Below are positions 5,622 to 58,264 of a DNA stretch of 64,000 nucleotides, piece after piece. The position numbers and the translations under genes were made by a program. The notes beneath the pieces are model-generated. The model did no database searches. It was not told where the DNA came from and saw nothing but the letters and a program-made list of their open reading frames with translations. The stretch comes from a virus (lineage: Duplodnaviria; Caudoviricetes), in the IMG/VR virus record IMGVR_UViG_3300037991_002562, positions 44,869 through 108,868 of that record. The stretch is one strand, 5' to 3'. How positions within the stretch are numbered: position 1 is the first letter of the stretch; the number at the start of each line of letters is the position of its first letter.

Positions 5622-6356
5622 ATGGCAAAATTTAGCTGGAATGAAGATAACACTGCGCAACTAGTAGACATGGTAGGCGCTCCTGACGAGACAATTACTC
5701 AAGCGCAACTAATCGAAGTAGCAGAACAACTTGGAACATCAGCACGTTCTGTAGGTTCTAAACTTCGTAAAATGGACTACAGCGTACAGAAAGCTAGCGA
5801 AGCTCGTAGCTCAGCATGGTCTGAAGCAGAAGAAGCAGAATTAGTAGCATTCTTAGACGCGAACAGCGGTGATTACACTTACGGCGAAATCAGCTCTGCT
5901 ATCCTAGGCGGGAAGTTCTCTCCTAAACAAGTACAAGGTAAAGTACTTAGCCTAGAAAAAACATCTGACGTAAAGCCAACTGAAAAAGTTGCTCCACCAC
6001 GTAAATATACTGAAGAGCAAGAAGCTAAGTTTGTAGAGATGGCTCAAGCCGGTGAAAGCCTTGAAGCAATTGCAGAAGCGTTAGGTGTAAGCCTTAACTC
6101 TGCTCGCGGTAAAGCTCTAGCGCTAACTAAGTCTCATAATATCGAGATGCCTAAGCAAGCGAAAAGCAACGCACAAGCTCGCGTAGACGTATTTGAAGGC
6201 GTTGACGTTGAAACAATGACAGTAGAACAACTAGTAGAAGCTACTGGACGTACTGCTCGCGGTATTCGTTCTACACTATCTCGTCGTGGCTTAACATGCG
6301 TAGACTACGATGGTGCTGCAAAGCGTAAGAAGTTAGACGAAGCATCTGCTGAGTAA
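5622..6356 (+). CDS. D5: T5 D5-like DNA-binding transcription regulator
   Basis: Repeated W/Y-x-E-E HTH-like units; position after ligB. Confidence 0.85.
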   Translation: MAKFSWNEDNTAQLVDMVGAPDETITQAQLIEVAEQLGTSARSVGSKLRKMDYSVQKASEARSSAWSEAEEAELVAFLDANSGDYTYGEISSAILGGKFSPKQVQGKVLSLEKTSDVKPTEKVAPPRKYTEEQEAKFVEMAQAGESLEAIAEALGVSLNSARGKALALTKSHNIEMPKQAKSNAQARVDVFEGVDVETMTVEQLVEATGRTARGIRSTLSRRGLTCVDYDGAAKRKKLDEASAE

Positions 6357-15864: not shown

Positions 15865-17699
15865 TTACGATAAAAAAGCTAAAATTTAGCAATATGTTCT
15901 CCTATGGTGAGAATAATGAGATTATCCTAAACAACTCTAACGTGCTTCAACTTGTAGGTAAGAACGGTGCAGGTAAAAGTTCAATACCGACAATACTTGA
16001 AGAGCTTCTGTATAATAAAAACTCTAGAGGCACTAAAAAGGCAGATATAAAAAACCGATACACGGACGCTAACTATTACTCAGGTACAGTTGAGTTTGAC
16101 GTAGACGGTGACGAATATATACTAGAGAAAGTAGTAAAGAGCAGCACAAAACTTACGCTAACTAAAAACGGGGAAGATATATCAGGACACACCCCTACTC
16201 AGACTTACAAAAAGTTAGAAACGGAAATTCTAAAACTAGATTTCAACACATTTAGTAAGTTAGTGTACCAGTCAATGAACAGCTCTTTGGACTTCTTGAA
16301 AGCTACCGACTCTAAGAGAAAAGAGTTCTTAATATCACTTCTATCCTTAGACAAATACGTTACTATTCACAATAGAATTAAAGAAGTTGTGAAAGAGGCT
16401 AAAGACGTATTAACAGGACATAAGGCCGTCGCTGCGGCCAAAGAATCCGAAATAAAGTCTAACAGAGCTATTGAGGTTACGTATAATGCAAAAGAAGTAC
16501 CTGTAGTAGACGAAACTATTAGAGACGAGATTGCGAATCTTAAAGCTATAGAGTCTCAGCGTGAAAAGATTCAGGAAAGAACTATTAGATACGCTAGGGC
16601 TTTTAAAGCAAAAGAAGCTGCTAAGCTGGCGTGGGAAGTTTTTGAACTCCCAAAAGATAAACCTGAAGCTCCCGATACTGAGCACTTAAAAAATCTATAC
16701 AAAGAAGCTCAAAATGTACAAGGACAAATTAACTCTTTAAGAAAGAGTATTAGGGAGCTAGAGTCCGGAGTAGGAAAATGTTCCGCATGTGGACAAGAAT
16801 TGCCGGACAGCGAAAGTAAACAAGAACATTTACTATGCCTTAAAAAGGAGCTGAATGAGCTCGTAGAGTACCAACAAGGTAAGCAAAGAGAGCATGAAGA
16901 AGGTAATCGCAAAGCTAGTGAATATTCCAAGCATCAATTACTTGTAGAGAAGCAAGCAGACCTTAAAACAGCCTTTGAAAACGCACAAGAAGCACTAGAA
17001 AATACTGAAAAGCCGGATGCTTTACCTGACTCTGTTGAGGACGAAATAACTAGACTTACTGCTGAATACAATAGACAAACTGTTGCTAAGCAACAAGCTG
17101 AACAGCACAACACTCTGCGCGCTAAGCAAATTGCTAAATACGAAGCGCAGAAAGAGTTAGTAGCTCAAGCTAAAGAGAAACTAAAATCTACTCAAGAGTC
17201 TATACGAGAATACGAAGCTTATTTAGAAGATGTGAAGATACTAGAGAGTGCGTTCGGGCCGAAAGGTCTTGTACAGTATAAGATAGAATCTAACATCAAA
17301 GTATTTGAAGCACTAATTAACGAATACTTAGTTCTATTAAGTAATGGTGACTTCAACATTAGATTCCAGATTGAGGATTCTAAACTTCGTATAGTAGTGT
17401 TCCAACACGGTGAAGAAATCGATATAAACTCAGCATCTAGTGGTGAGTTCAACAATATTAACACAGCTACCTTACTAGCGGTAAGGAAGATGATGACTTC
17501 AATCTCTAAAGTAAGTATTAATATACTATTCTTAGATGAAGTTATTTCTGTACTAGACGTAGAGTCTAGAGAGAATTTGATAGATATTTTAGTTAAAGAG
17601 CAGAACCTTAACTCAGTAGTGGTTAGTCATGGGTTTGAGCATCCTTTAGCAGACACGGTATCTATAGTTAAAGAAGGAAAAACTTCAAAATGCAAATAA
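15861..17699 (+). CDS. D13: D13 SbcC/Rad50-like ATPase
   Basis: GKNGAGKS, CSACG hook, SSGE signature, LFLDE. Confidence 0.93.
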   Translation: MITIKKLKFSNMFSYGENNEIILNNSNVLQLVGKNGAGKSSIPTILEELLYNKNSRGTKKADIKNRYTDANYYSGTVEFDVDGDEYILEKVVKSSTKLTLTKNGEDISGHTPTQTYKKLETEILKLDFNTFSKLVYQSMNSSLDFLKATDSKRKEFLISLLSLDKYVTIHNRIKEVVKEAKDVLTGHKAVAAAKESEIKSNRAIEVTYNAKEVPVVDETIRDEIANLKAIESQREKIQERTIRYARAFKAKEAAKLAWEVFELPKDKPEAPDTEHLKNLYKEAQNVQGQINSLRKSIRELESGVGKCSACGQELPDSESKQEHLLCLKKELNELVEYQQGKQREHEEGNRKASEYSKHQLLVEKQADLKTAFENAQEALENTEKPDALPDSVEDEITRLTAEYNRQTVAKQQAEQHNTLRAKQIAKYEAQKELVAQAKEKLKSTQESIREYEAYLEDVKILESAFGPKGLVQYKIESNIKVFEALINEYLVLLSNGDFNIRFQIEDSKLRIVVFQHGEEIDINSASSGEFNNINTATLLAVRKMMTSISKVSINILFLDEVISVLDVESRENLIDILVKEQNLNSVVVSHGFEHPLADTVSIVKEGKTSKCK

Positions 17700-45570: not shown

Positions 45571-47544
45571 TTAATTTAATCCTATGAATGAAAAGGAGAA
45601 ACCTGGAATAGTAACACTATTTTCTAGTCCTCCACTACCGTTAAAGGAGAAGTATGAATAATCGTACTCTATACCTATAAGGGTGTCTGTAATTTTTACT
45701 AAATAAAAGGTACAACGTATAGTATACCATGTATTCCAATAGGGGTCTCCACTAGGAAGCTCCTCCTTGTCAAATCTATATGTCTCGGAAGTGGAGTAGA
45801 AAGGCACTCTAGAAGAGAATGATGAAAATCCTATAATGCCTTTGTCTTGTGCATATAGCTCTTCCCATGACTGCTGGTCACTAGAGTAATCCCATTCCAC
45901 GGGGGTAACTGAGTAACCCCAACAACTAGAACTCCTAACACTATCAAGTATTATTGTTAGGTCTGTCAATATACCTGTACCAGAAATAAACCCTTCTCCT
46001 TGGGAGTTAGTCCCATGAGACGGTATATTAAATGTATAAACAGGAGTAGTGTGGTCTGTACTCTTACCCATGTACCTCATACGAGTCCTTCCACGACCTG
46101 CATTAAACCAAGTGTTACCCCCTCGTTTAATTATCCCCTTAGTCATTTCAATGTCCCATCCAGAACCACCAGACCCACCAAGAATTTGCACAGCATCGCT
46201 AGGGTTCTGGCCGGAATACACCCCTAAGGGGTCTATCAGGCCGACCACTGGTATTATAGGATCAGATAGATTCATACTATTAACATACGAACCGTCATTG
46301 ACAATACCTGCATAGGCTAGGAACATACCTGAGAAATCTGCCCCATCTACTGTAAAATTATTAGAGTCTAATAGTATACCCGATGCTCCGGTTTTAGCGG
46401 TTTCATAGTTTAAGTCTCTACCACTACTCACTATATTGAATTCATATATCTCAACAGAGTTTATATCCTGAGGTGTCCTAATGTAAGTGTCCCCTGAGGC
46501 GTAGTAAGCCCCTCCTGAACCATAAGCGAAAGACCCGAGAGTATATTCAGCCTGAGCCAAGTTCTCGTTACTAAAATTAATTTTTCTAGTTATTACAGGT
46601 GCTCCGCCTCTTCGGTTGCCTAACTTATCTACAGTAACTACCATAGTTAGACGAGTAGAACTAGGAGTGTAAGATACTGAGTTTCCTGTAGTGCCGTCTA
46701 ATGCATCTGAGAAATAAAACTTTCTAAAGGCATCGTCGGTATACTCAGTTATTCTAATATACTTTAAGCATTTAATATAGTCAAACATACTATGCATGTA
46801 AGTATCGTCACCGTAGTCTACATTAATACCTACCCAATCCTGAAACCAATCTGTAGCAGTCTTGCCCGACTCCACGGCGGGCGGAGCCGCCGGGACTACG
46901 TTAGGATTACATATATGAAGTATCTCATCTCCGGCCCGGTTTACACCAAGAAAGAAGTCGCACGGAGCCTCTGGCTCAGGTCTAGGGGGTGGAGGTGAAA
47001 GTAGGGACGCAGATACTGTGTTTGAGAAAGGCCCGTAAACTACGTCACTGCCTGTGCCCTTCACCATGCGGATTTTAAAGCTACCGCCAGTTTCATGTAT
47101 ATAGCTACTACCCGTGCCAGTAAATACCGTAGTACCGTTTCTTACGACTTCTACCCTTTCCCCAATATCTGTGTTGGGAGTCCAGTCTAATAATACTCCG
47201 TCATATCTACTAGTAGCAGTTAGTACCCTAGTTTCAGGCTTCACGTGAAATATGATGTTTATGGTGTTACTAGGATATAAATTATCTGTTCTTATCTGGG
47301 CTTTTGTAGCGTTAGCTGGTGGTATTACCTTTAACGAATTGGAACTAGTAGAGGTATTAGCCGACTGCCAGTTTCCACCTACTAGCCAATATAAATGGTA
47401 CATCCCTGGACTACTAGGCTCAGTCCATTGCAAGTTAGCATATTTATAGATAGGACTGGTAGAGTTTGATAAGTTTGTTACTTTTTTAGCAGGGTTGTCC
47501 GCCACGAAGTAGACGGATACCGTTCCAGTTGTATATATAGCCAT
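45571..47544 (-). CDS. Putative receptor-binding protein (pb5 position)
   Basis: 657-aa beta-rich protein at the T5 oad locus; positional call only. Confidence 0.55.
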   Translation of the reverse strand: MAIYTTGTVSVYFVADNPAKKVTNLSNSTSPIYKYANLQWTEPSSPGMYHLYWLVGGNWQSANTSTSSNSLKVIPPANATKAQIRTDNLYPSNTINIIFHVKPETRVLTATSRYDGVLLDWTPNTDIGERVEVVRNGTTVFTGTGSSYIHETGGSFKIRMVKGTGSDVVYGPFSNTVSASLLSPPPPRPEPEAPCDFFLGVNRAGDEILHICNPNVVPAAPPAVESGKTATDWFQDWVGINVDYGDDTYMHSMFDYIKCLKYIRITEYTDDAFRKFYFSDALDGTTGNSVSYTPSSTRLTMVVTVDKLGNRRGGAPVITRKINFSNENLAQAEYTLGSFAYGSGGAYYASGDTYIRTPQDINSVEIYEFNIVSSGRDLNYETAKTGASGILLDSNNFTVDGADFSGMFLAYAGIVNDGSYVNSMNLSDPIIPVVGLIDPLGVYSGQNPSDAVQILGGSGGSGWDIEMTKGIIKRGGNTWFNAGRGRTRMRYMGKSTDHTTPVYTFNIPSHGTNSQGEGFISGTGILTDLTIILDSVRSSSCWGYSVTPVEWDYSSDQQSWEELYAQDKGIIGFSSFSSRVPFYSTSETYRFDKEELPSGDPYWNTWYTIRCTFYLVKITDTLIGIEYDYSYFSFNGSGGLENSVTIPGFSFSFIGLN

Positions 47545-47879
47545 TATAGTGGTTCCGTACCAGGGCCCCCAGGAGGAGTTCCGGCCTCTTCGTTGATTTC
47601 CATCTCAAAGTAATATTTATAAGTATTTTGATTAGACACATTAGAATCTGTGTATGTTATGTCACGTTGTATAAAAAATCCCTCGCCCCCGTCCGTTGGT
47701 AAGCTGTAATTTCCAGAAACTTTAGAGAAAGACCCATTGTTAGTAGACCTCATTACATATCCGTATCCATTTTCCTTAAGCTTTGTCGCAGTACCCCCAG
47801 AATTTACCCTAACACGTATAGATACTTCTATGGTAGACCCTACTATCTCTGCATTTATTGTACTGTTGTTATTTGCCAT
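47544..47879 (-). CDS. Small FnIII/Ig-like structural protein
   Basis: Y.VMRS...YTDSNV....YKYY pattern; AGGAGG RBS. Confidence 0.55.
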   Translation of the reverse strand: MANNNSTINAEIVGSTIEVSIRVRVNSGGTATKLKENGYGYVMRSTNNGSFSKVSGNYSLPTDGGEGFFIQRDITYTDSNVSNQNTYKYYFEMEINEEAGTPPGGPGTEPL

Positions 47880-47900
47880 GGTTTCCTCCTAATATTTAGT

Positions 47901-47929
47901 ATTATACGGTAAGCTATGCAAATTTTCAA
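47901..47929 (-). promoter_or_regulatory. Late sigma70 promoter
   Basis: TTGAAA-17-TATAAT. Confidence 0.75.
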
Positions 47930-47970
47930 TTGTATTATTTTTACCCACGGTTAGGTAATGTGCTGTTTAA

Positions 47971-48092
47971 GTTTGAGATCAGCGCTGTATAGTACTTCTA
48001 TAGTTTAGTCATTTTTCTAAGTGTTACACGCGTTTGAGATCAGCGCTGTATAGCACTTCTATAATTTAGTAATTTTTCTAAGTGTTACACGC
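47971..48092. repeat. Tandem 61-bp direct repeat x2
   Basis: 47971-48031 and 48032-48092, 3 mismatches. Confidence 0.9.
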
Positions 48093-48185
48093 GTGTAAGA
48101 GTACCCCCGTATCTAAATGAGAACAAGTCTCATTACCGCCCTATGGGTATGGGATCGCATACCTTAGTACACGATCCCGATCTTA

Positions 48186-48569
48186 CTACTCTGTGTCGTC
48201 ATCAGATCCCATTTCTAGATCGTCAATGATTGCCGCTTGCTGCTCAACGAATGCCGCTAACGCTTCTAACTCGCCCTTGTTCGCTTTCTCCAAGCTGTCA
48301 ACCGTTAGACCTGTTGTTTCAGCGATTTGCTTAACAACTTCGATTTTACGCGTTGCGCTTGGGTTGCCAACCTTAGCTTTGGCATCTGGTGAAACATATT
48401 CTTTCATGCTAACCAACTTCTGACGGACGCTGTTTTCTGTTACGTCAAACTGTTGACCGATAGCTTTAAGCTGCGCCTGTTCAAGCGCTTTGCCGCTATT
48501 AGCTTCAATAGCTGCCGCGTATGTTGCGCTCAATTTCGCTGTTGTTTCTTCTGTCCAAATTTTAGCCAT
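48186..48569 (-). CDS. A2: Pre-early A2-like DNA-binding protein (second-step transfer)
   Basis: W.EE.T.K...Y, SVRQKL.S.K.Y, KVG..S..RK, SLEKA.K..L as in T5 A2. Confidence 0.85.
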   Translation of the reverse strand: MAKIWTEETTAKLSATYAAAIEANSGKALEQAQLKAIGQQFDVTENSVRQKLVSMKEYVSPDAKAKVGNPSATRKIEVVKQIAETTGLTVDSLEKANKGELEALAAFVEQQAAIIDDLEMGSDDDTE

Positions 48570-48664
48570 GATTTGATCTCCTTAGATCGTAAATTAAATG
48601 TTGGTTTGTGTTTGCGGTCGTATTTTGCCCCGACCGCTTGAGCATTAAAACAAATTTCGCTTAA

Positions 48665-50326
48665 CTATGCAATAACTTTTTGGGGGTTCAAGGTGATTAA
48701 TTGAACTTGCCCGTTGCTGTATTCCATCATGTGACCGTGATCCCACGATGACGCGCCCCCACGGTTATAGCCTTGGTTCAGTCGAGCGGTAACGCCTGTC
48801 GTAAACACTGAGCCTATTATGCATGGGCTATGGGTGTGTCCTGTTATTAGGTTTAAATTCCAGTCCTTGAACTGATTTGGGTTTCCTGCGCTCCCGTTAG
48901 CTCCTTTATGTCCGTGTTGCGAGTAATCGAATTTTAACGGTTTAAATGGCTTGTCCATTCGACCAAAGTGCACATTAGTCGGCAACTCTGGCAACGTGGT
49001 TAAATCAGCATTTTCTAGGGCGATTTGCAACGCATTTTTCTCATGTTCGCCTTGGTCTAAGGTATCGCACACTAGCCAGTTAAGCAGATAGTATAATTTG
49101 CTGTTGTGGCTGTCCTGCTTGGGGTTGACGCTGCTATCATCCAGCCAGTTGTCTAGGGCTGAGTTATGGTTGCTTTCAGTAATTGAAACGGTATCAACTA
49201 GGGTTGATAGTTCGGTCAACTGATAGATCACCTGTTTAAGATCGTTCTCAACGCTTTCATGTCGATTTGCGTACAAGTGTTTCCCACTGTTACGGTTATG
49301 GTGAGATCTTGTGCTAAAGTGTAAAATATCATCAACTGCGATCACACTTGGTTTAATCCGATCCAAAAATTCAACTGTTTTTTCCCAATACGCTTGGTCA
49401 TAAACTTCACAGTGTAGATCACCTAGCTTTCCGGCTTCTGGTAACTTGCCATAAAAATATTCGAGTTCAGGTAACACCACATTCAACGATCCGTCATCGC
49501 CTTGAAAGACGTTGGTAACATTATAGCCACCGTCGCACTTGTAAACGATCATGGCTGCCTGCTTGTGATCTTTTTCCGCTTCTGCCCCTGCGCGGCTTCT
49601 GGTGTAGTTGTACGCGGTACAGCTACCAGTAGTGACCGCCTTTGTGACAGATTGATCATTGAGTCGCGGCAATGTTTTATACTGTTGCTTGGGGCTTGCT
49701 ACTACCGTGATCAATTCACCGCTGTTCAGCTTTGCCGCTGCGTTAACTGGTACTTTGTTAGTCGGTAGCACTGCCGCTGTGCTGGCAACTAGGCAAGCGT
49801 TTTTCTCGAATAGCCAACAATCATCAAGCTGTAAATATTGTAGGATCTTAGGATTGAAAACTTCTTCCTCTTTCTCTACCGCTGGACTAAAGGCGTTTTT
49901 GTTATAGTAAACGGGCATTACCATTAAACGCGCATCTAGGCTGGCAGATTTCATGTCATCGACTAAGGCAAGAAGTTGATCCTCAAAGCCTGTGGTAATA
50001 GTGTTATTTTGTGCGCTTGTAATTACGAAAACATCACCGTCTAGAACTGGTAATAAATCGCGCTGTGATTGCGTGTAACCAACTTGTGTATCTGCCGCTG
50101 GTTTAGTCGCTGCGCTTGGCTTTTTCGCTTTCTCTGCCTCTCTCTGGCGTTCTAGCTCCTCAATAACTAGCGGCATTAAGATAGATGCGTCACCATTAAG
50201 ATCAAGGTTATGGATCGCATCCTCAACAACTTCCAAGCGTGAATCACGTTTACGCTTGCCTAAAAGGTTATTTTCTGCGCACTCTGCGCAGAGTAGATCA
50301 AATTTCTTATCGTTTAAAGGTTTCAT
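48665..50326 (-). CDS. A1: Pre-early A1-like protein (host DNA degradation/second-step transfer; metallophosphoesterase fold)
   Basis: ITSAQNN, TTGSCT..NY...AG, GDLH, ESNHN, QHGH, GHTHSP; 553 aa. Confidence 0.9.
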   Translation of the reverse strand: MKPLNDKKFDLLCAECAENNLLGKRKRDSRLEVVEDAIHNLDLNGDASILMPLVIEELERQREAEKAKKPSAATKPAADTQVGYTQSQRDLLPVLDGDVFVITSAQNNTITTGFEDQLLALVDDMKSASLDARLMVMPVYYNKNAFSPAVEKEEEVFNPKILQYLQLDDCWLFEKNACLVASTAAVLPTNKVPVNAAAKLNSGELITVVASPKQQYKTLPRLNDQSVTKAVTTGSCTAYNYTRSRAGAEAEKDHKQAAMIVYKCDGGYNVTNVFQGDDGSLNVVLPELEYFYGKLPEAGKLGDLHCEVYDQAYWEKTVEFLDRIKPSVIAVDDILHFSTRSHHNRNSGKHLYANRHESVENDLKQVIYQLTELSTLVDTVSITESNHNSALDNWLDDSSVNPKQDSHNSKLYYLLNWLVCDTLDQGEHEKNALQIALENADLTTLPELPTNVHFGRMDKPFKPLKFDYSQHGHKGANGSAGNPNQFKDWNLNLITGHTHSPCIIGSVFTTGVTARLNQGYNRGGASSWDHGHMMEYSNGQVQLITLNPQKVIA

Positions 50327-50391
50327 ATATAACGGTTTCCCTATTAAGGTTTTTTAAGGGGCTATGAAGCCCCCGTTACGGGTTGATCAAA

Positions 50392-50907
50392 TTAATGACC
50401 GTGAAAAGGAACGTGAATTGCTTTCATGTTCAAGCGCTGTGCCATTTGGCAGTTTGCTAGATTATCATCGACCAAAAATGATCGCGATAGCTCAAGCGAT
50501 GAAAACGCGCGGGTTAAGTGGTACTCTTTTAACTCAAAATCACGACGGCGATCATTCTCGCCCTCTCTGGAAAAGATCGCGGTAGGTTTGATTCCGTTCT
50601 TGCGTAGCCACTTGTTAGAATTATTGCACATAACGCGAGCAGTGCAAACAAAAAATGATCTTCCTGCATCAGTTAGGAACTGCGGCACTTCTGCCAGTGG
50701 CATAACTTGATCTTTTGCAATGTTTGCCGCTGTCGATAATTTGCGGTACATTTCAAGGTTAAGCGATCCATCTGGGTGTATCGCTTGGCGGTGTGTAGCA
50801 TCGATCACCACACCATCAAGATCAAAAATAGGTATAATGCTCTGATCCAATAGGATCGCATCAGTCATTTGAAGCGCTGCGGCTCTGGTATTTTGAATTG
50901 TTAACAT
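50392..50907 (-). CDS. dmp: HAD-family deoxynucleoside-5'-monophosphatase
   Basis: FDLDGVVID..HR, G.LNL..Y, CTARVM, VDDN. Confidence 0.85.
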   Translation of the reverse strand: MLTIQNTRAAALQMTDAILLDQSIIPIFDLDGVVIDATHRQAIHPDGSLNLEMYRKLSTAANIAKDQVMPLAEVPQFLTDAGRSFFVCTARVMCNNSNKWLRKNGIKPTAIFSREGENDRRRDFELKEYHLTRAFSSLELSRSFLVDDNLANCQMAQRLNMKAIHVPFHGH

Positions 50908-51429
50908 CTGGTTAACTCCCGTTTAAGGTATATAAAAATATACGTTGGGGCGTTGTGCCTCTCAACTGTTACCCATTATATATAGCAATAAACTTTTGTC
51001 TACATTAGTTTTTATACGTATGTATGAAATTATATACTTTTCATTTGCTCTATTATGTGCTACCCTACCAGCAAATGCAAATGAGAATGATTCTCAATTG
51101 ACCGGCTCCGCCAGGTCGGAACGACCAAACGCAAATGATAATGATTCGCATTCAACCGCGCCGATTTTCGGTCGCTTTCCCAGTTATGGCTTATTATTAC
51201 ATTTACGTGTAGGTTTGTCTAGGACTGAATAGTTCTAAGAATGAATTTATTTAGGCGATTTTGTTATATAGTGAATTGTGGCATTCTAGCAATTACTGTG
51301 CCAACTCAAAAATCGTGCCAAAGTCGCAAATCACGCACAATGCCTCTAAATGGCTCTGTATTGGGAGCATGAGGCAAGCCAAGCAAGTGCATTGCTACAC
51401 CCCAGAAGTCTTCTCAGATTGCCATTGTG

Positions 51430-52113
51430 TAAGTCATTGATTTTAAAGGGAAAAATAATGCTTGACAAGCCAGTGGCACGATTTTTTCTATTGCATAAGT
51501 CGTGCCAACCTTTATTGGTCAATTTCACTACTTTTTGGTTAAATGCTCGATTGGTACGATTCTTGCTAGTAAAACTTTTTGGTACTGCTAATACAAATGA
51601 GAATGATTCGCATTCTCGCCGATTTTGCATACTGGCACGAAACTTGCTTAATGAGAACGGTTCGCAAATGAGAATAGTTGCTATTTAGAAATGGCATGAA
51701 AGTTGCTAGGGAAGTTATCCACAGGAACGTGTGGGTAAGTGAAGTTATGCACAATACTGTATAAATATACAAGCGCTCAGCAGCAGCTGGTGGACTTATC
51801 CACAGAAAATTGTGGATAAATATACCTGTATAGATATACAGTAGTTTTAAGTTGTGGGTAACTAAAACATACCGTTTAAAGCTCCTGTATCGCATTCTGG
51901 GGGGGTTTTTAGGTCGGAGTAATACTAGGGGTTAGGGTGTGGTAGAGTACGAGGGTGTAAAAAATCCTGACCTGGTGTCGAGAAACTTTACAACGCTAAG
52001 TTATTGATATACAAGGATTTTTTGTTTTTTGACGCTAAAAACTGTCGGGTTTCTTTACACTGGCACGGTTCTGTTATGTGCTGGTTTAGCAAAAATTAGC
52101 TAAGTTATTGATA
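51430..52113 (-). promoter_or_regulatory. Three IHF consensus sites
   Basis: WATCAANNNNTTR exact matches at 51430, 51997, 52101. Confidence 0.75.
51715..51861. promoter_or_regulatory. DnaA-box cluster interleaved with LexA boxes
   Basis: TTATCCACA at 51715, 51796, 51811(-); 1-mismatch boxes at 51730, 51745, 51853; CTGT-N8-ACAG at 51826 and near-match at 51757. Confidence 0.8.
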
Positions 52114-52186
52114 TATAGGGGTTTTTCAAAGTTGGCACTAGGGTTGCATTATATATAGTGTGTCACGGGGCACATACTAAAACAAA

Positions 52187-52537
52187 ATGAGAATTATTAT
52201 CATGTTAAACAAAAAAATCCAAATTACTGAGAATGTTGTTATTTCACTATATCGTTGCAATGCTGAAACTTTGGGTGTAGATATTGTACGCTTTTATTTT
52301 AAAGGCGAATTAGTAGGCACTTACATTTCAACAGTGTTTGAAAAACGTGCAAGCGTGTGTTTATATGAATTAGTTGATGAGGTAGCATCAGAAGAAGCAA
52401 AAGCATTTTTACTAGAATGCTCTAACCAAAAAGAAATACTAAAAACTCTAAAAGGATTAAAAGATATTAGAAAAGACTTGACAAACGAAGATAAAGCTAT
52501 TTTTAATGTTTACCTAAAAGCGTTTGACGTGAACTAA
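52187..52537 (+). CDS. Pre-early hypothetical protein
   Basis: 116-aa ORF; start overlapped by a Fur-like box. Confidence 0.55.
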   Translation: MRIIIMLNKKIQITENVVISLYRCNAETLGVDIVRFYFKGELVGTYISTVFEKRASVCLYELVDEVASEEAKAFLLECSNQKEILKTLKGLKDIRKDLTNEDKAIFNVYLKAFDVN

Positions 52538-52842
52538 GCAAAAACCGTGCCAAGTGAGAAAGTCAAGAACTTTCTCACTTGTGTAAATGAGAATAGTTCT
52601 CATCTGGCCGCGCCGATTTTACAGCATAGCGAGGCGATTGTCAAGTTAAATTTTACACGTCCGACCAGTTAAAAAAGTGTTGCTGTTTTATACTTTATAA
52701 TAAAGTGGGTCGCGCCGATTTGGCAATGCGAATGATTCTCATTTACGCCCGATACGTGTCTGGTATGACCAGTGAAAAAGTTGTTGCGGTCTGTGCGGGT
52801 AGCTGTATAATGATTACATCAACTAGAGACAGGGAGGCAGCT

Positions 52843-52983
52843 ATGAACGTGGCTCAGATTATCGGATTGTTATTTTTAGCTATGGCTCTAGCTACACTTT
52901 TTTCTAGAGAGCCACTGGCATCGATTCCGGTGGCTACAATAGGTGTGTTGCTAATATTTGGCGACACTGAGAAACCAATTTAA
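52843..52983 (+). CDS. Small two-helix membrane protein
   Basis: GGAGG RBS, hydrophobic 46 aa, TATAAT at 52806. Confidence 0.6.
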   Translation: MNVAQIIGLLFLAMALATLFSREPLASIPVATIGVLLIFGDTEKPI

Positions 52984-53049
52984 CCCCGTAGGCGATAACC
53001 GCCATTTTGCCCCGTCTATATGGGCGGGGCACTTTTTAAGGGTAGGATA

Positions 53050-53241
53050 ATGGATAAAAAATTCGGCTGGTATGGTGCTGGCCTAATGGTAATTTTTAGT
53101 TTTACCTTGTTGCCGGTATTCGGTATACTAGGCTTAACGTTGCTTACGGTGCAAGCGGTTAGCACTAAGCAACATAACTTGATAGCTCTAAATACATTCA
53201 GCATACTAGGGCTAATTTTAAACTCTACGGGAGTAATTTAA
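53050..53241 (+). CDS. Small membrane protein
   Basis: Hydrophobic 63 aa, AGGA RBS. Confidence 0.6.
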   Translation: MDKKFGWYGAGLMVIFSFTLLPVFGILGLTLLTVQAVSTKQHNLIALNTFSILGLILNSTGVI

Positions 53242-53242
53242 T

Positions 53243-53641
53243 ATGTTTAAGCAATTCGCAGCAACACAAATCCTAGCTAATGCTATCGCTTCGGTCTTAG
53301 ATTTGGGAAAGGATCTAAGTTGTGAAAATGTGGTTTCTACAATGATGGTAGAGGCAAGCAAAAACGAAATACCAGACGCGGACTTAAAAACTTTCAGCGT
53401 GCACACGATTGTGGTGGCAACGAATACACCAACCACCCCAATTGTCGCAAACCTAGAAGAAATTGCGCAAGCGGATGATCCTTTGATGCATTTGGCTGGT
53501 TGTATACTGAGTGAGGAAAATCTGTTAGGGATACAAAAAACCCTAGAAGCTGAACCTGACGAAGACGAGGAAGAAGGTTCACTTCTTGGTGTGGTTCGTA
53601 ATTTGCGTGGCAATGTGCGCATTGAAAAGGATGTAAACTAA
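53243..53641 (+). CDS. Pre-early hypothetical acidic protein
   Basis: GGAG RBS, operon context. Confidence 0.65.
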   Translation: MFKQFAATQILANAIASVLDLGKDLSCENVVSTMMVEASKNEIPDADLKTFSVHTIVVATNTPTTPIVANLEEIAQADDPLMHLAGCILSEENLLGIQKTLEAEPDEDEEEGSLLGVVRNLRGNVRIEKDVN

Positions 53642-53898
53642 TGCCGTGCCGCGACCCATTGACAGACCACGAACTGGAAGCCGCTAAACTGAAAAACAAA
53701 CTTGACAAGGTAACAGACTTGTTATGTGAAGCCTGTTCAGTTATCGAGACTAACGGTATGGACGACGATTGTAGCCTTGAATTAAAACAGTGGATTGCGG
53801 ATCATTTTCAGGCAGATCAAAACAACGTCAGGCGACAAATTGAATTGTTGTCGGTCGCAGAGTTGCGCAAAGTTGTGAAGTTTTTAGACAGTCTATAG
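53641..53898 (+). CDS. Pre-early hypothetical protein
   Basis: MPCRD...LLCEAC...W...H pattern seen in phage proteins. Confidence 0.65.
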   Translation: MPCRDPLTDHELEAAKLKNKLDKVTDLLCEACSVIETNGMDDDCSLELKQWIADHFQADQNNVRRQIELLSVAELRKVVKFLDSL

Positions 53899-53907
53899 GG
53901 GGCAGCT

Positions 53908-54162
53908 ATGGCGAACACATCCATTGAAAAGGGGCGTTCGCCAACGCCTCTCAGGACAGTAAGCACAATTCGCAGAGAATTGCAAGCGCTAGAAAATCAG
54001 GCTAACGAGATAGCGCGAAGTAGCTTTTTAGCGTATGAGTTTTTATCTAGCGATTTGCTAGAGCAGATTAATGCGAAAAAATCAACTATTAATTTTCTCA
54101 CTACCAGAATAAGACGGCGCAAGCTTTACAACTGGCTGAGAAAGAAGACGGGGTGTAAATGA
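53908..54162 (+). CDS. Pre-early hypothetical basic protein
   Basis: RBS and operon context. Confidence 0.55.
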   Translation: MANTSIEKGRSPTPLRTVSTIRRELQALENQANEIARSSFLAYEFLSSDLLEQINAKKSTINFLTTRIRRRKLYNWLRKKTGCK

Positions 54163-54485
54163 TTACCATACAATTAGACGATATACAAGCTAAATTATTA
54201 GCTAACCTATTAAATGGTGAGAAGCTAATACCGCAAGAAGTGAGGGAGCTTGTTCCACTGGTCAACCAGCTTAATACTGGCACAATGAACCGCGAAAAGT
54301 GGATTCAAGGACTAGCAGAGGGCAAGCGCTACACACATGAATACTTTACTAGTAGTGAGTGGGTACAAGCAAGTGCTGTGCCAGAACATCTGGAATTTGA
54401 AGACGGGGTATTATGCTCTATCGAAGAATTTGAGCGCTACCGCGAAGGCTGGCCGCATGACCTATGGGAGGAGATCGAAAAATGA
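54159..54485 (+). CDS. Pre-early hypothetical protein
   Basis: ATGA overlap; G.R.THEYF...EW. Confidence 0.6.
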   Translation: MITIQLDDIQAKLLANLLNGEKLIPQEVRELVPLVNQLNTGTMNREKWIQGLAEGKRYTHEYFTSSEWVQASAVPEHLEFEDGVLCSIEEFERYREGWPHDLWEEIEK

Positions 54486-54922
54486 TTGACCACCTTGACC
54501 AACTAGTACCTTGGTGTTTATAGCTGAATAAAAAGTGCATATTTATGCACTTTTTTGCATAACCGCGCCACTCCAGCACACGGATTCCCACCTATACAGT
54601 ATAACAGGTCTACACGTCAAGTCAAGCACTTTTTCCTGAATACAAATCTAAATGAGAATGATTCGCATTCAACCGCGCCGATTTTACCACACTCTGACAC
54701 AAAAAACAAGTCCGACCAGTACATGCGAGTGGTTCTCATTTAACTTTTTGAATCTAAATGATAACGATTCGCATTCGCAAAGTAACCTTATTTTTCGACA
54801 AATAAATTTACCGAAGGTTTACCCCGATAGGGGAGCGCAGCGACCTGCGCCAGAGTACGATTTCGACTAGTACTAAACCGACCGCTGCCCCTACGTGTAA
54901 GCTACCCTGAGTACTAATCCGA

Positions 54923-55156
54923 CTACCATGGCGGCTTGTCCCAATCTTCAGCGGGCACTACGGCTTCTGACGGGCGTGCTGTGCTGGTGGAGTTAGACGG
55001 GCGCGAAGTGCCCTGCGCCGGAGTACGATTCTGACCGAGTACTAGACCGACCGCCTCTGCCAAGAGCAGGAGTTCGTCTTTCTTAGCAGCACTGAGGCTA
55101 GGGGCAACAATGTTTAAGTGAGTACAAATCTGATTGGCTATATCTGTCTTAGTCAT
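54923..55156 (-). CDS. Small protein resembling the A2-family C-terminal helix module
   Basis: TK.DIA.QI...L.....SL..AKKDELL.LA. Confidence 0.5.
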   Translation of the reverse strand: MTKTDIANQICTHLNIVAPSLSAAKKDELLLLAEAVGLVLGQNRTPAQGTSRPSNSTSTARPSEAVVPAEDWDKPPW

Positions 55157-55188
55157 GTTAATTCCGCTTAATTCAATTTATACGCATA

Positions 55189-55875
55189 TTATATAAGATC
55201 TGAGGCGGAAAAGCAAGGAATTTCTTGAGTTATTTCGGGTTTTTCAGGGATTTCTTGAGGAATTTCAGGGAAATCTATATCTTTAAATGCATACCATTTA
55301 CCGTCTAGAGTATAAGAATTATGGTACTTTGCGCAGTATATAGTATTAAAATTATCTATGCCCTCTTCTTCTACATACTCCCAGAACTCAGCTAAAGACC
55401 ATCCGGCCGGTTTCACCTCGGAGGGTGGTAGGTAGCCGAGGACCCGGTAGGCGTTGTTGTCTATTAAAAATTGTTCAGTCTCATCACCCACCAGCTCTTC
55501 TATTTCAGAGTACAAATCCGGTGATAGTTTGTTTTTTGCTAGGGTCTGCATAGCGTGGAGCTCTTTTATTGCTTTTAGACCTACTTTTCTAACTAGGGGC
55601 AATACCTCGATGCATATGTACTTTAACCACTCTCTTGCATTGGGTTGTACGGACACTCCTAAAAAGAAGTAAATTGTGGATTCATCATACAATTTACGTC
55701 CATCGTCGTGAGTCACGACGCGGGATTGAAAATCAGCATTACGCTTAAGAAAATCATTGACTGCCACCTTAGGCCTTGCGTACCCTAGTTTCTTTGCCAT
55801 GTCTTCCAAGTCAAAATAAAACTTGTTATTTATCTTGTAGAGTGATATACCCTTTTCTAAGTTTAATATATTCAT
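55189..55875 (-). CDS. Bro-N domain DNA-binding protein
   Basis: FYF.LEDMAKKLGY.RP..A...ES.IY......PNA..W...I..EVLP.VRK.G. Confidence 0.8.
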   Translation of the reverse strand: MNILNLEKGISLYKINNKFYFDLEDMAKKLGYARPKVAVNDFLKRNADFQSRVVTHDDGRKLYDESTIYFFLGVSVQPNAREWLKYICIEVLPLVRKVGLKAIKELHAMQTLAKNKLSPDLYSEIEELVGDETEQFLIDNNAYRVLGYLPPSEVKPAGWSLAEFWEYVEEEGIDNFNTIYCAKYHNSYTLDGKWYAFKDIDFPEIPQEIPEKPEITQEIPCFSASDLI

Positions 55876-56102
55876 AGTAAATGCCTCCAGGCTTCAGTAC
55901 CAGTCATCATACCACATACGTAGTCCTGCCATCTTCTACAAACGGCACAATCACCCTTAAGTAGAAAGAAGTAAAGCTCCGATTCGGTAATTTCAGTTTT
56001 AGTAATGCCAGAGTCGTAACCTAAAACTTTATTAAGGTCAGCAACTAGGGCGGTATTGCGTTCAGTTATGGGCACGCCTGCCGTTAATTCATCTATATTC
56101 AT
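55872..56102 (-). CDS. Short Bro-N-like protein
   Basis: DLNKVLGY...ITESELY. Confidence 0.5.
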   Translation of the reverse strand: MNIDELTAGVPITERNTALVADLNKVLGYDSGITKTEITESELYFFLLKGDCAVCRRWQDYVCGMMTGTEAWRHLL

Positions 56103-56215
56103 AGATTTTAGTATATCAAAAATAGTCTAGGAGGGCAAATGATTTAACAAAACGCTTGATTAGAGACGTTTTTTAACGTATAATACTTGTATTGAATGAA
56201 TGAGGAAGAACGAAT

Positions 56216-56527
56216 ATGTGGAACGAACAAAAATCAGCTCAACTAGTTAAGACTTACAAAACTAGCGGCTACGATGTTGCACAAGCGGCGAAGGCGCTTG
56301 GAGTATCGGAACGCTCTGCTATCTCTAAGCTAGCTGCTCTAGGAGAGTATGTTAAGCCTGTAAGTACTAAACCGAGCACAGGGCGCATTAACAAAGCACA
56401 GTACATTTCTGCGGTCGAGGCAATGCTAGGAGTCAAGTCTGGTAAACTAGCGGGTCTCTCTGGGGCGAGTGCTAATGCGATAGAAGAATTAGCGGCAGCT
56501 CTAGTAAAACTAGGAGACCAAGCATAA
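56216..56527 (+). CDS. A2/D3-family DNA-binding paralogue
   Basis: MWNEQ....LV..Y, A.ALGVSERS..SKL, RINKAQ; own promoter cassette 56156-56207. Confidence 0.7.
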   Translation: MWNEQKSAQLVKTYKTSGYDVAQAAKALGVSERSAISKLAALGEYVKPVSTKPSTGRINKAQYISAVEAMLGVKSGKLAGLSGASANAIEELAAALVKLGDQA

Positions 56528-56772
56528 TGGATATTATTGTTACTATTTGGACTGCATTGATTTTTGTAGGGTATCTAGCCTACTTCGCAGGCGACAAAGC
56601 GACTGTAGTAATGTATGACCTAGAGGTGTATCAGGGTAAAGTGTTTAATTGGGCGGATGCAGTTAGTATTATACTAGGGATAGCGTCGGGGCACTATTGG
56701 CTGGCTTTGCTAGTGCCACTCAGCTCTATTATCATGTATAAGCGCACTCGCAAAAAGTTGGGACTTTCTTAG
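56527..56772 (+). CDS. Small membrane protein
   Basis: Two to three hydrophobic segments, basic C-terminus. Confidence 0.65.
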   Translation: MDIIVTIWTALIFVGYLAYFAGDKATVVMYDLEVYQGKVFNWADAVSIILGIASGHYWLALLVPLSSIIMYKRTRKKLGLS

Positions 56773-56880
56773 TCCCTGCTCGCGCCGCTCCGCGGCGAGC
56801 CCTTTCCCATCTATAACATGTATTATACGCGGAATTGAGTCCGTTTGCAAGTGATTTTTAGTAAGAAACTGGTGAGACTA

Positions 56881-57410
56881 GGGTGGGAATTGGGGCGGAA
56901 TCGGGGAATTTTAGTCGCGCCTAACGGTCGTTTACGACCTGCGCCCTCCGAAAAAACTTTAAAATTTCTTGCGTGGCTACAAACCCAATCTTGGCCGTAA
57001 ACGGCCGGGTTAGGGGTATAAGTGTAGTAAGGCGTTTGCCACTTCGCGGCGGGTTCAGGGTATAAGTGTATGAAACCTAGGGGAAGGGTTGGGAGATTCG
57101 GGATATAAGTGTAATAAGGAAGGTGTTGATAACGCTCTCGCCGGAACAATGCCGAAGGCATGGAGTGGGCGAGGATGTGGTAAAAGTATATTAGAGTCTA
57201 GGGATAAGTCTGTAGGGAGGCCTAGGAATAGATTTAGACTAGGATTGGAAAGGCAGCAGGCGGGGCGAGTCCAGGGCCGTATGTTGGGAAGGGTCGGGGA
57301 AGATTGGGGAGGTTTGGGGAATAAGTGGGGAAACAATCCTCTGATATAGTTATAGGTATAGCAGAGCGAAACGAGTTCTCTGATATAGCTATAAGTATAA
57401 CTATAAATAG
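56881..57410 (+). repeat. Non-coding G-skewed repeat tract, candidate injection-stop-signal region
   Basis: GGRTATAAGTGTA x3 (about 57014, 57058, 57101), CTCTGATATAG x2, three G4-type motifs. Confidence 0.65.
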
Positions 57411-57484
57411 CTTATCCTCCTAGTTTTTTGATACTCAAAATTTTAAAATTGGTACTTTTTCGATAGATACAATTATGGCAATAA

Positions 57485-57652
57485 AATCTTTTTGTTGTGT
57501 TCGCTTAAAGCGACTATGTCTTAGTATTGGTTAGGCTTGTCAAAGTTACTTGGGGTGTGCTTTAAACAGAGTCGCACCCCACTTTGAGCCAAACCGACTA
57601 AGAAGTCGCTAAAGCTCACATCAATAGAGAGTCATATAACTCTCTAGAAGAT
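57485..57652 (-). ncRNA. Candidate rod-shaped structured RNA
   Basis: TTTACA-17-TACAAT promoter (57687-57659), long imperfect inverted repeat, no ORF. Confidence 0.5.
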
Positions 57653-57698
57653 GTTAATATTGTAGCAGATTTTTTTCTCCATGTAAAGTATTTTGTTT

Positions 57699-57971
57699 TT
57701 ATTCACCAATGGGTTCTGACCACAATGCTTCAAATGGTTCTTTGCAGTAAACAACATATGACCAAGACGTGTAACTTGGGTTACTTTTTCGGTCGACTTT
57801 GTTTGCTTCTAGGATTTGAAGATATTGGTCGTATTTTTGCTTAACAGTTCTTTCCTTATCATCCCTGAACATTCGCTGTGTGATTTGCATATGCTTTAGC
57901 AGCATTTCTTGGGTGTGGTTTGGGAATTTGTTACAAAACTGTCTTAGTTTAACTTTGTAGGCTTCTTTCAT
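57699..57971 (-). CDS. Early hypothetical protein, family 1 copy a
   Basis: Similar to 57968..58264. Confidence 0.7.
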   Translation of the reverse strand: MKEAYKVKLRQFCNKFPNHTQEMLLKHMQITQRMFRDDKERTVKQKYDQYLQILEANKVDRKSNPSYTSWSYVVYCKEPFEALWSEPIGE

Positions 57972-58264
57972 TTCTTAAAATACTCTGTATACCCTGCTCT
58001 AGTGGCAATGGTCTTTTCTATAAAACTTAGAAAGGATTCTTCTTTATAATACACTACATATTTCCAGCTTGTCCAACTAGGAGGACTATGGGATTTTAGT
58101 AATGAGTTTCTGTTTAATCGCTCTAGGAACGCTTCGTAACATTCTCTAGTAGTAGCGTATTGTTTATCATCACGGAAGTATTCCCTAGTCTTTTCTAGTA
58201 GCTCTTCCGTTGGGTTGATAAACTTGTTAGTGAATTGTTTTAGTTTGATTTCGTATGAGTTCAT
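57968..58264 (-). CDS. Early hypothetical protein, family 1 copy b
   Basis: Y..KL.QF.NKF.N.T, FRDDK, PS.TSW.YVVY.KE shared. Confidence 0.7.
   Translation of the reverse strand: MNSYEIKLKQFTNKFINPTEELLEKTREYFRDDKQYATTRECYEAFLERLNRNSLLKSHSPPSWTSWKYVVYYKEESFLSFIEKTIATRAGYTEYFKK

Follow-up and report, generated by a model that had tools for sequence, protein, structure and literature searches.

An array of Fur-operator-like boxes in the pre-early DNA of an uncultured marine T5-like phage

Results

The phage is represented by a marine metagenome only, and its genome (G000, 108,868 bp) was scanned for boxes in full. The window is the 64,000-nucleotide stretch C1:44869-108868, and positions below are window positions unless given as C1. 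By its gene content, a 6.7-kb stretch of the window is identified as pre-early DNA, the phage being T5-like, marine and uncultured. The stretch encodes a homologue of the DNA transfer protein A1 (48665..50326, − strand; phrog_1745, E 1e-130) with about 46% identity to A1 of Vibrio T5-like phages, a 127-aa A2-like DNA-binding protein (48186..48569, − strand; phrog_1725, E 3e-18) and, in the dmp position, a HAD-family phosphatase assigned by family/profile match (50392..50907, − strand). These genes lie beside the boxes described below, and the label ‘pre-early’ given in an earlier sequence-only reading was correct. The A2-like protein is 34% identical to T5 A2; its structure model is all-helical (pLDDT 89.7), with no significant structural relative in Foldseek (best E 0.16). 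A rightward block of small pre-early ORFs (52187..54485, + strand) gave two weak matches only, to PHROGs of unknown function. RNA-library contigs cover 52877-54467 of this block, which as contigs alone are not proof of transcription. The phage genome had no match to the Fur family (PF01475, 0 matches). The assembly was circularised with an overlap of 99 bp only, and the pre-early stretch is probably the long terminal repeat in collapsed form.

Twelve copies of a 19-bp box are confined to this block. A degenerate pattern with ≤3 mismatches recovered, at identical starts, every one of the 12 sites listed in the sequence-only reading. In the window it produced 25 strand-wise matches, accounting for the 12 sites plus one at 13191 (expected 0.80 ± 1.20), and five matches were exact against 0.00 expected (100 shuffles). 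Genome-wide, all boxes with ≤2 mismatches fall within C1:92984-99643 (reversed control, 0). At ≤3 mismatches there are 13 sites (reversed control, 1), 12 of them inside 6.7 kb of 108.9 kb; the site at 13191, the sole match outside that stretch, has three mismatches and is chance-grade. Non-coding DNA holds 11 of the 12 boxes and the remaining one (52186) overlaps a start codon.

Each box comprises two AATG(A/C)GAAT half-sites flanking one free base. The boxes had been called palindromes, and the inverted-repeat form holds; perfect symmetry does not, with none of the 12 perfect and 5 to 8 of 9 arm positions complementary. An AATGCGA-type half-site occurs, one per box, in seven of the 12, and its partner half is GAGAAY or GATAAY in six of these seven. 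Overall, the phage boxes favour GAGAAT/GCGAAT half-sites over the GATAAT of Fur, and half-site position 6 is G in 20 of 24 cases and T in three. Frequent GAG/GCG combinations and arms that do not stay complementary suit a pair of protein half-sites rather than a hairpin. In a relative of about 85% nucleotide identity (L009), six boxes align with window boxes; by eye, 10 of the 12 substitutions in them hit positions that are degenerate in the window (5, 6, 9, 10 and 15), which points to constraint on the box in the relative as well.

The leftmost copy (48116..48134) is a terminal-type box, AATGAGAACAAGTCTCATT followed by ACCGCCCTA. The left end of Vibrio phage phi 3 carries this box together with the ACCGCCCTA flank (30-48), and Vibrio phage SJ1 has a 19-mer identical to the terminal-type box 16 bp from its record end. 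By analogy with these terminal boxes, the physical left end of the genome is probably within a few tens of bp of box 48116. A pair (51080-51098 and 51134-51152) is found upstream of the leftward dmp-like/A1/A2-like operon, with a predicted sigma-70 promoter (51002->50975, − strand; consensus scan) downstream of both; their positions are kept in L009, with changes at positions 6, 10 and 15. The trio 51596, 51650 and 51667 (51596..51685) is interleaved with sigma-54-type elements, and a single box (52186..52204) overlaps the beginning of ORF 52187/52202-52537. An inverted pair (52586-52604 and 52725-52743) occupies the gap that separates this first rightward ORF from the second, with box 52586 just downstream of a predicted − strand promoter (52644->52616, TTGACA-17-TAAAAT; consensus scan). 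The distal three-box cluster (54651, 54722 and 54757; 54651..54775), with start-to-start spacings of 71 and 35 bp, comes after the final rightward ORF and after a hairpin with a T-run at about 54530-54556. Five of the 12 boxes carry a flank motif, CGCCGATTT (repeat family D2; 51159, 51617, 52611, 52713 and 54676, spanning 51159..54684), whose five genome-wide occurrences are all box-adjacent and on the + strand.

Two further kinds of element share the block. Four consensus DnaA boxes in two repeated units (51715+, 51745+, 51796+ and 51811−; 51715..51819, repeat family D8) form clustered pairs within 105 bp, representing four of the 12 TTWTNCACA matches in the genome, and the cluster is kept in L009. 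The sigma-54 -24/-12 consensus is TGGCACG-N4-TTGCW, and GG/GC elements at this fixed spacing (TGGCAC-N5-TTGCW) occur exactly at 51288-51303(−), 51633-51648(+), 52133-52148(+), 52537-52552(−) and 54368-54383(−), and with one mismatch at 51474(+), 51492(−), 51552(+), 51692(+) and 50429(−), the last just left of the 51288..54383 span, inside the dmp-like gene. These 10 matches compare with 1.44 ± 1.15 expected, and all five exact matches in the genome are in pre-early DNA (reversed control, 0). The element at 52133(+) is oriented towards the rightward ORFs and that at 51288(−) towards the A1 operon; those at 52537(−) and 54368(−) lie antisense. Both kinds, the paired DnaA boxes and the sigma-54-type elements, keep to the pre-early DNA and recur in Vibrio and Aeromonas T5-like phages. 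The phage genome has no match to the sigma-54 activator ATPase (PF00158) and no sigma-54 gene; box-to-element distances show no single fixed spacing, and no activator/enhancer arrangement was found within the phage. The elements are only candidate sites for sigma-54 polymerase.

The same pattern finds boxes in other T5-like phages. Phage T5 has seven per terminal repeat and none in its roughly 101-kb unique part; those at 9552, 9587, 9656, 9691 and 9697 lie inside the annotated iss (9140-10149; NC_005859), where sites span 9552-9715. Both boxes of phi 3 are within its terminal repeat, matches in or beside repeat copies make up 12 of 12 in SJ1 and seven of eight in Pectobacterium DU_PP_V, and all four in Aeromonas TS3 are near record ends. 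Arrays are thin in some Vibrio lineages (one site in 234P7B, two unique sites in Cilsick). Across 80 A1-bearing IMG/VR loci (1.29 Mb), 347 boxes with ≤2 mismatches were detected versus two in the reversed control; 62 loci have boxes and 18 have none at this threshold, some of the 18 being short or not T5-like. Confinement of the T5-type box to such DNA was thereby surveyed and found in this phage, seven others and the 80-locus set. On these comparisons, the 12 palindromes are identified as copies of a conserved box marking the first-step-transfer (terminal-repeat, pre-early) DNA of T5-like phages, an identity missed by the sequence-only reading, whose Fur-operator match and pre-early confinement both stood. 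The available text of one account of the T5 left terminal repeat describes Repeat Regions 2 and 3 / injection stop signal, direct repeat C and palindromes E-J, as well as paired DnaA boxes (Davison, 10.1101/866236). By sequence match, the T5 equivalent of the box is the ‘direct repeat C / palindrome’ array located in its injection-stop region, to which the distal three-box cluster is the likely counterpart here.

Fur and its operator are conserved across gammaproteobacteria, and the phage pattern retrieves the strongest known E. coli Fur operators, bearing out the earlier claim of a Fur-box match. In E. coli K-12, the symmetric pattern identifies 51 sites versus seven in the reversed control, and all 11 sites with ≤2 mismatches are 5' of genes (nohD, gpmA, oppA, yddA, nohA, ydhY/fumD, sufA, yoeA, ryhB, fecI and fhuF). 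The 3-mismatch matches include the fepD/entS and fepB/entC intergenic regions, and the preferred phage half-site, AATGAGAAT, is found in the top-scoring gpmA, ryhB and fecI sites. The two strongest non-iron sites are upstream of nohA and nohD, packaging genes of cryptic lambdoid prophages, namely the terminase small-subunit genes of Qin (nohA) and DLP12 (nohD/nohB). At least nine of the 11 best sites are among the strongest Fur clusters listed in Table 4 of Chen et al. 2007 (PMC2189734); as far as that source was available, several clusters in the table, including that of nohA, are marked as gel-shifted or footprinted (nohA as gel-shifted), and yddA is named among 42 Fur clusters above 17 bits. 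The box therefore reads as a high-grade operator for the host Fur repressor: the 19-bp inverted repeat of the Fur consensus is present, except that 20 of 24 half-sites have G and not T at position 6. Among 100 listed K-12 half-sites, position 6 is T in 58 and G in 30 (by-eye count), so the phage consensus departs systematically from the Fur optimum, and does so in T5-like phages with different hosts. Placement differs as well: the same source (PMC2189734) gives promoter overlap for 83% of Fur clusters in E. coli, versus few phage boxes that touch predicted promoters, most being upstream of or between them and off the -35/-10 hexamers (consensus scan only).

Discussion

The best reading of the array, which we give about an even chance, is that host Fur docks on the boxes. 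Iron-loaded Fur dimers already in the host would dock on phage DNA during entry: close to its left end, at the distal cluster that follows the rightward pre-early operon, and in the central control region, where paired DnaA boxes and sigma-54-type elements are also found. On this first DNA to reach the cell, bound Fur would serve as a roadblock or architectural factor, marking operon borders and the pause region and possibly contributing to the injection pause, until cleared by A1/A2; the bound boxes would not be a sponge for host Fur. This reading is favoured by a box that stays the same between phages although their A2 proteins share only 34% identity, and by the lack of a Fur-family gene in the phage itself. 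The T5 injection stop needs no phage protein synthesis, so a protein that the host already contains suits the role. Counting against Fur docking are the preference for G at position 6, the placement of most boxes off -35/-10 hexamers when E. coli Fur clusters so often overlap promoters, the thin arrays of some Vibrio lineages and the 18 of 80 boxless A1 loci; it also leaves unexplained how a cytoplasmic protein on already-entered DNA would halt further entry. Fur docking offers a testable candidate for how T5-like phages handle their first injected DNA.

A further point against it is the co-occurrence of the boxes with A2, and the main competing explanation, possible if on the unlikely side, is that they are operators for a phage protein, most plausibly A2-like, else another conserved pre-early or virion protein. 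Bound protein would restart DNA transfer or shut off pre-early transcription, and the likeness to Fur operators would reflect mimicry, competition or coincidence. In the available text of two sources, A2 is a DNA-binding protein conserved with A1 across T5-like phages, essential and required for second-step transfer, with no known DNA target (10.1101/866236; 10.64898/2026.04.02.716235). The A2-like gene is within the same block as the boxes, these sit where A2 action is expected (the iss region), and the box consensus, with G at position 6 and frequent GCGAAT, differs systematically from the Fur optimum in phages of E. coli, Vibrio, Aeromonas and Pectobacterium alike. However, the 19-bp box is essentially the same in this phage and T5 despite their divergent A2 proteins, and the half-site agrees with the Fur consensus at eight of its nine positions, in a pattern that retrieves the strongest E. 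coli operators, making coincidence unlikely. Without a significant structural relative, the A2-like model lends no positive support to palindrome recognition, and A2, whose synthesis follows the pause, cannot be what brings about the stop. The nohA/nohD sites also indicate that Fur boxes near phage DNA ends are not limited to A2-bearing phages.

Fur docking could be part of a wider arrangement, which we regard as doubtful, in which non-coding T5-type first-entering DNA is a landing pad for host proteins (Fur, DnaA and sigma-54 polymerase) that hold or pause entry. Fur would occupy the boxes and DnaA the paired DnaA boxes; sigma-54 RNA polymerase would be parked as activator-less closed complexes in the marine, Vibrio and Aeromonas lineages. 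Jointly these proteins would hold or pause the DNA and insulate the pre-early operons until A1/A2 clear them. If so, phage DNA entry would have Fur as a structural co-factor, and what stops T5 injection, a question 60 years old, would gain testable host-protein answers.

Repression of pre-early promoters by box-bound Fur in iron-replete cells, the iron-dependent gating suggested earlier, is rather improbable, as the box geometry is unlike that of Fur-repressed promoters. Box 52586 does lie about +4 to +22 from a predicted strong − strand promoter, boxes 51080 and 52725 overlap weak predicted promoters, and box 52186 is about +26 to +44 from the sigma-54-type element at 52133, over the start codon. 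But the best predicted promoter, that of the A1 operon, has boxes upstream only, as does a TATAAT-type promoter at ~52783-52811 before the rightward block (by eye, outside the promoter-scan list), and the sole strong promoter with a box directly downstream is antisense. The main T5 array is in untranslated DNA past a terminator, and repressing takeover genes in well-fed hosts brings no evident benefit to the phage.

DNA-level signals without a sequence-specific regulator (hairpins/cruciforms, terminators, packaging/end-processing signals or nick sites) are very improbable. They would suit the one copy that keeps a fixed distance (16-30 bp) to the end of the genome in phi 3, SJ1 and DU_PP_V, the strand-specific CGCCGATTT flank and the 7.9% nick of T5, between GCGC and TTTT just right of its array, but not the incomplete arm complementarity of all 12 copies, the terminator-like score of one copy only, the seven boxes lacking the flank or the internal copies far from any genome end.

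The previously proposed Fur sponge, titrating host Fur to derepress iron uptake or receptor genes, is scarcely credible: some T5-like phages use Fur-regulated receptors, and each genome has many strong Fur-type sites, doubled by the terminal repeat, but one entering genome brings 12 sites against thousands of Fur molecules per cell, and the array also occurs in T5-like phages that use BtuB (receptor of some, such as BF23), which is not an iron transporter. Not all phages with the T5-type box, then, have an iron transporter as receptor. In T5, as far as the source was available, pre-early functions shut off host expression and, through A1, set off the degradation of host DNA, both within minutes (10.64898/2026.04.02.716235), so derepressing host genes would gain the phage little.

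Compared with known systems, the five exact and five one-mismatch elements with variable spacers, all pre-early, resemble sigma-54 promoters, but several are antisense to ORFs and they come with no phage activator or sigma-54 gene and no identified enhancer site. The boxes share the 19-bp 9-1-9 inverted repeat of Fur operators (gpmA, ryhB, yoeA, fecI, fhuF and sufA), but prefer G at position 6, often as GCGAAT, are mostly off promoter hexamers and control no iron genes. Like the nohA/nohD clusters, they are strong Fur-type boxes by a phage DNA-end/packaging region with no iron-gene link; those clusters belong to another phage family, are single rather than arrayed and come without A1/A2 or two-step injection. 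T5 has seven copies as opposed to twelve spread across the whole block and lacks the sigma-54-type elements; here, in addition, the DnaA-box cluster is central only and the leftward operon order (dmp-like, A1, A2-like) is reversed. As in T5, the 19-bp box has a 5' TAAATGAGAAT and a 3' CATTCGCATTC context and is confined to first-step-transfer DNA, paired DnaA boxes are in the neighbourhood, the distal cluster has a 35-bp spacing (T5 9552/9587/9656/9691), and A1/A2 run leftward and small ORFs rightward.

Fur-box-like array in the first-entering DNA

A scan with the degenerate 19-mer of the sequence-only reading (≤3 mismatches) returned, to the base, all twelve Fur-box-like sites proposed by that reading, at 48116, 51080, 51134, 51596, 51650, 51667, 52186, 52586, 52725, 54651, 54722 and 54757. 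Exact matches numbered five in the window compared with none in 100 shuffles, and ≤3 mismatches gave 25 strand-wise matches, that is, the 12 sites plus an extra three-mismatch site at 13191 outside the array, against 0.80 ± 1.20 expected. Across the 108,868-bp IMG/VR record, of which the window forms C1:44869-108868, sites with ≤2 mismatches were restricted to C1:92984-99643 (reversed-pattern control, 0), and ≤3 mismatches again yielded the 12 boxes and 13191 (control, 1). These scans show the box to be confined to first-entering DNA. Eleven boxes are non-coding and one lies over a start codon. The description of the sites as palindromes holds in so far as all are inverted repeats, with the half-site consensus AATG(A/C)GAA(T/C) and AG (13), CG (7) or AT (3) at positions 5-6 of the 24 half-sites, but none of the 12 is a perfect palindrome. 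A hairpin or terminator reading was dropped because the box arms lack complementarity.

The array overlies a pre-early gene block comprising, on the minus strand, an A2-like gene (48186-48569; phrog_1725, 34% identity to T5 A2), a homologue of the DNA transfer protein A1 (48665-50326; phrog_1745, E = 1e-130, ~46% identity to Vibrio T5-like phages) and a HAD phosphatase in the dmp position (50392-50907). Small plus-strand ORFs follow at 52187-54485; they belong to no informative family, and two have weak PHROG matches of unknown function. A second, weaker match to phrog_1725, the A2 family of DNA-binding proteins, lies right of the box region (56216-56527, plus strand; E = 1.4e-5). A megablast search of named phages with this region gave no match, and no close relative at the DNA level has a name; two IMG/VR contigs, L008 and L009, are close (A1 95% and 93% identical, respectively). 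No tRNA was found in the whole window and no Rfam family in 47500-58000.

The record is closed by a 99-bp overlap, and any long terminal repeat would therefore have collapsed in assembly. The 48116 box and its ACCGCCCTA flank equal an element at 30-48 of the left end of Vibrio phage phi 3, and an identical copy of the 19-mer lies 16 bp from the record end of Vibrio phage SJ1. Since these are terminal elements, the physical left genome end is probably near 48087-48100; the right end may be near 54.8-55.1 kb or further to the right. Two tandem 61-bp repeats, 95% alike, occupy 47971-48092 directly left of the 48116 box, at the presumed junction of late genes and genome end, and both L008 and L009 contain related copies.

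Contigs assembled from RNA libraries, in which DNA carry-over is possible, also map to the block. In two runs from a single study, contigs stop at 50967, which is seven bases beyond the predicted -10 of the A1-operon promoter; this point was not taken as a transcription start because a contig from a third run, of another study, bridges it. The stretch 51224-51991 was uncovered in the same two runs, which is no evidence of silence. At 56171-56207, contigs of two RNA-library runs part from the window sequence: their ends are loose on either side, and one joint leads to 58500 on the opposite strand. This may reflect a strain variant, or a rearrangement, in the divergent promoter region that separates 55872-56102 (minus) from 56216-56527 (plus).

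Distribution across T5-like phages

Named phages were compared using the symmetric pattern at ≤3 mismatches. T5 has seven sites per terminal repeat and none in its ~101-kb unique part; those at 9552-9715 fall inside the annotated injection-stop region (iss), and 6098 falls within IRCspacerIRD (6022-6152; coordinates from the Davison preprint, 10.1101/866236). Among Vibrio phages, phi 3 has two sites, both in the repeat, SJ1 has 12 matches, all in or beside repeat copies and three with 35-bp spacing, Cilsick has two unique sites and 234P7B has one. Pectobacterium phage DU_PP_V has seven of eight sites within its first 12.7 kb, and all four sites of Aeromonas phage TS3 are near record ends. A scan at ≤2 mismatches of 80 viral loci that carry A1 (1.29 Mb in all) gave 347 boxes distributed over 62 of the loci, compared with 2 for the reversed control. 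In the one-per-contig set, 23 of 34 loci had boxes, typically with one box 2.1-3.4 kb past the A1 start, toward the genome end, and with clusters 0.8-9.5 kb upstream; the remaining 46 loci, which are either second copies of a repeat or additional records, mainly enterobacterial, enter only the 80-locus count. The box is a family trait of T5-like phages, one and the same element whether the host is E. coli, Pectobacterium, Aeromonas, Vibrio or the uncultured marine one. Citromicrobium phage RXM and Rhizobium phage RHph_N37, which are not T5-like, could not be used to ask whether a different host goes with a different box, because their A1-like genes lie in replication modules and lack a pre-early block.

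L009 is ~85% identical over the block, and the boxes are found at the same locations in it. Six aligned boxes differ by 12 substitutions, of which ten are at positions that are degenerate within the window too. Box copy number varies, since L009 lacks the 51615-51690 insert carrying two boxes and a seventh aligned box, 54722, is decayed there, leaving six boxes in total (≤3 mismatches).

Likeness to Fur operators

The phage pattern retrieved 51 sites from E. coli K-12 compared with 7 for the control. The 11 of them that have ≤2 mismatches are all located 5' of genes, namely nohD, gpmA, oppA, yddA, nohA, ydhY/fumD, sufA, yoeA (a TonB-dependent receptor), ryhB, fecI and fhuF, and three-mismatch matches include the fepD/entS and fepB/entC intergenic regions. 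The strongest Fur clusters in Table 4 of Chen et al. 2007 (PMC2189734), many of them gel-shifted or footprinted, include yoeA, gpmA, nohB, ryhB, sodA, fecI, entC, yebN, fhuF, nohA, fadD, oppA and sufA, and 9 of the 11 best K-12 sites appear in that list. This retrieval bears out the match to the Fur box, and the box may be regarded operationally as a Fur operator. Consensus sequences for IHF, ArgR, Lrp and Zur do not appear to fit it. Among the best Fur-type boxes of K-12 are those at 580592 and 1636591 (loci L013 and L017), which lie upstream of two packaging genes, nohD in the cryptic lambdoid prophage DLP12 and nohA in Qin, close to the expected place of cos. They are a second instance of Fur boxes next to the ends of phage DNA.

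Sigma-54-type, DnaA and flanking motifs

Exact matches to the sigma-54-type element TGGCAC-N5-TTGCW occur at five places in the genome, each within 51288-54383 (control, 0); allowing one mismatch gives 10 matches against 1.44 ± 1.15 expected. Phages phi 3, Cilsick, 234P7B, SJ1 and TS3 likewise have exact matches in their pre-early part alone, and T5 and DU_PP_V have none. Among the 80 loci (control, 0), 14 of the 25 with A1 at least 33% identical to the A1 of the window carry 21 sites, and 2 of the 55 with A1 at most 32% identical carry 2, these being two repeat copies of one record. All 18 matches in the 34-locus set are 965-5575 bp upstream of A1, and the IMG/VR loci with such elements include L009, L031, L033, L037, L040, L042, L045, L049 and L090. 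In T5-like phages of the marine, Vibrio and Aeromonas groups these elements are confined to the pre-early DNA; in enterobacterial ones they are no commoner than chance. Their orientation is mixed, some facing pre-early operons and others pointing back into them. A box centre lies 50-165 bp upstream of 8 of 21 elements with no single fixed distance, and no coupling is claimed. Four consensus DnaA boxes, of 12 genome-wide, cluster at 51715-51819, and the cluster is conserved in L009.

The motif CGCCGATTT occurs five times in the genome (51159, 51617, 52611, 52713 and 54676), each time adjoining a box and on the plus strand. It might be a nick site, because the annotated 7.9% single-strand interruption of T5, cut between GCGC and TTTT, adjoins the T5 box array just to its right. 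A second family of small palindromes, CTGGT-N3-GACCAG-like, sits between box pairs at 52655-52669, 52759-52773 and 54706-54720; its member GTCCGACCAG occurs only twice in the genome, and L009 has a perfect ACTGGTCAGACCAGT at about 16180-16200 (window orientation). A FadR-like reading of GTCCGACCAGT is unsupported: a FadR-type palindrome gave 5 matches in the window against 1.84 expected, and 9 in K-12, where its reversed control gave 28.

Candidate readers and roles of the boxes

We give even chances to Fur binding the boxes. On the reading preferred here, pre-existing host Fur would dock on the entering DNA and act structurally; Fur, DnaA and a parked sigma-54 polymerase could jointly make the injection pause, which A1/A2 would release. 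This pause model fits the site layout. No gene for a Fur-family protein, a sigma-54 factor or an activator ATPase was found in the phage. Evidence against a simple Fur reading includes G at half-site position 6 in 20 of 24 phage half-sites, a bias shared by SJ1 and DU_PP_V, against T in 58 and G in 30 of 100 listed half-sites among K-12 matches (by-eye count), as well as the position of most boxes off predicted -35/-10 hexamers, the thin array in some Vibrio lineages, and A2.

A2 is a serious rival as reader of the boxes because it is a DNA-binding protein, described as essential in a preprint (10.64898/2026.04.02.716235), without an assigned target. In the structural analysis, 69 representatives were aligned; the A2-like model is all-helical (pLDDT 89.7), and Foldseek against the PDB gave no match at E ≤ 0.001 (best, 0.16), with weak rows for MntR/DtxR-type and homeodomain folds at a TM of about 0.27. 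These results are uninformative on the target site. Iron-dependent gating of pre-early promoters, also put forward earlier, is possible for only a minority of boxes, judged by predicted promoters and box-to-element spacing. The suggested Fur sponge fails on numbers, since one entering genome offers 12 sites to thousands of Fur molecules per cell. It also fails because pre-early functions destroy host DNA early (10.64898/2026.04.02.716235).

Comparison with T5

A search of mostly open-access papers found nothing linking Fur or sigma-54 to T5-like first-entering DNA, and 'Fur', 'iron' and 'sigma' occur zero times in a term search of the Davison preprint (10.1101/866236). These findings touch on what halts and restarts T5 DNA injection, and turn an anonymous repeat into a concrete case testable in E. 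coli with T5. The T5 sequence has the same extended box context, TAAATGAGAATCATT...CATTCGCATTC, and the DnaA cluster of the window resembles the paired boxes of T5 described by Davison. The T5 element corresponds to direct repeat C and palindromes E-J, with no binder named in the preprint's account of these repeats, and the window element is a further case of this known, functionally unexplained repeat class.
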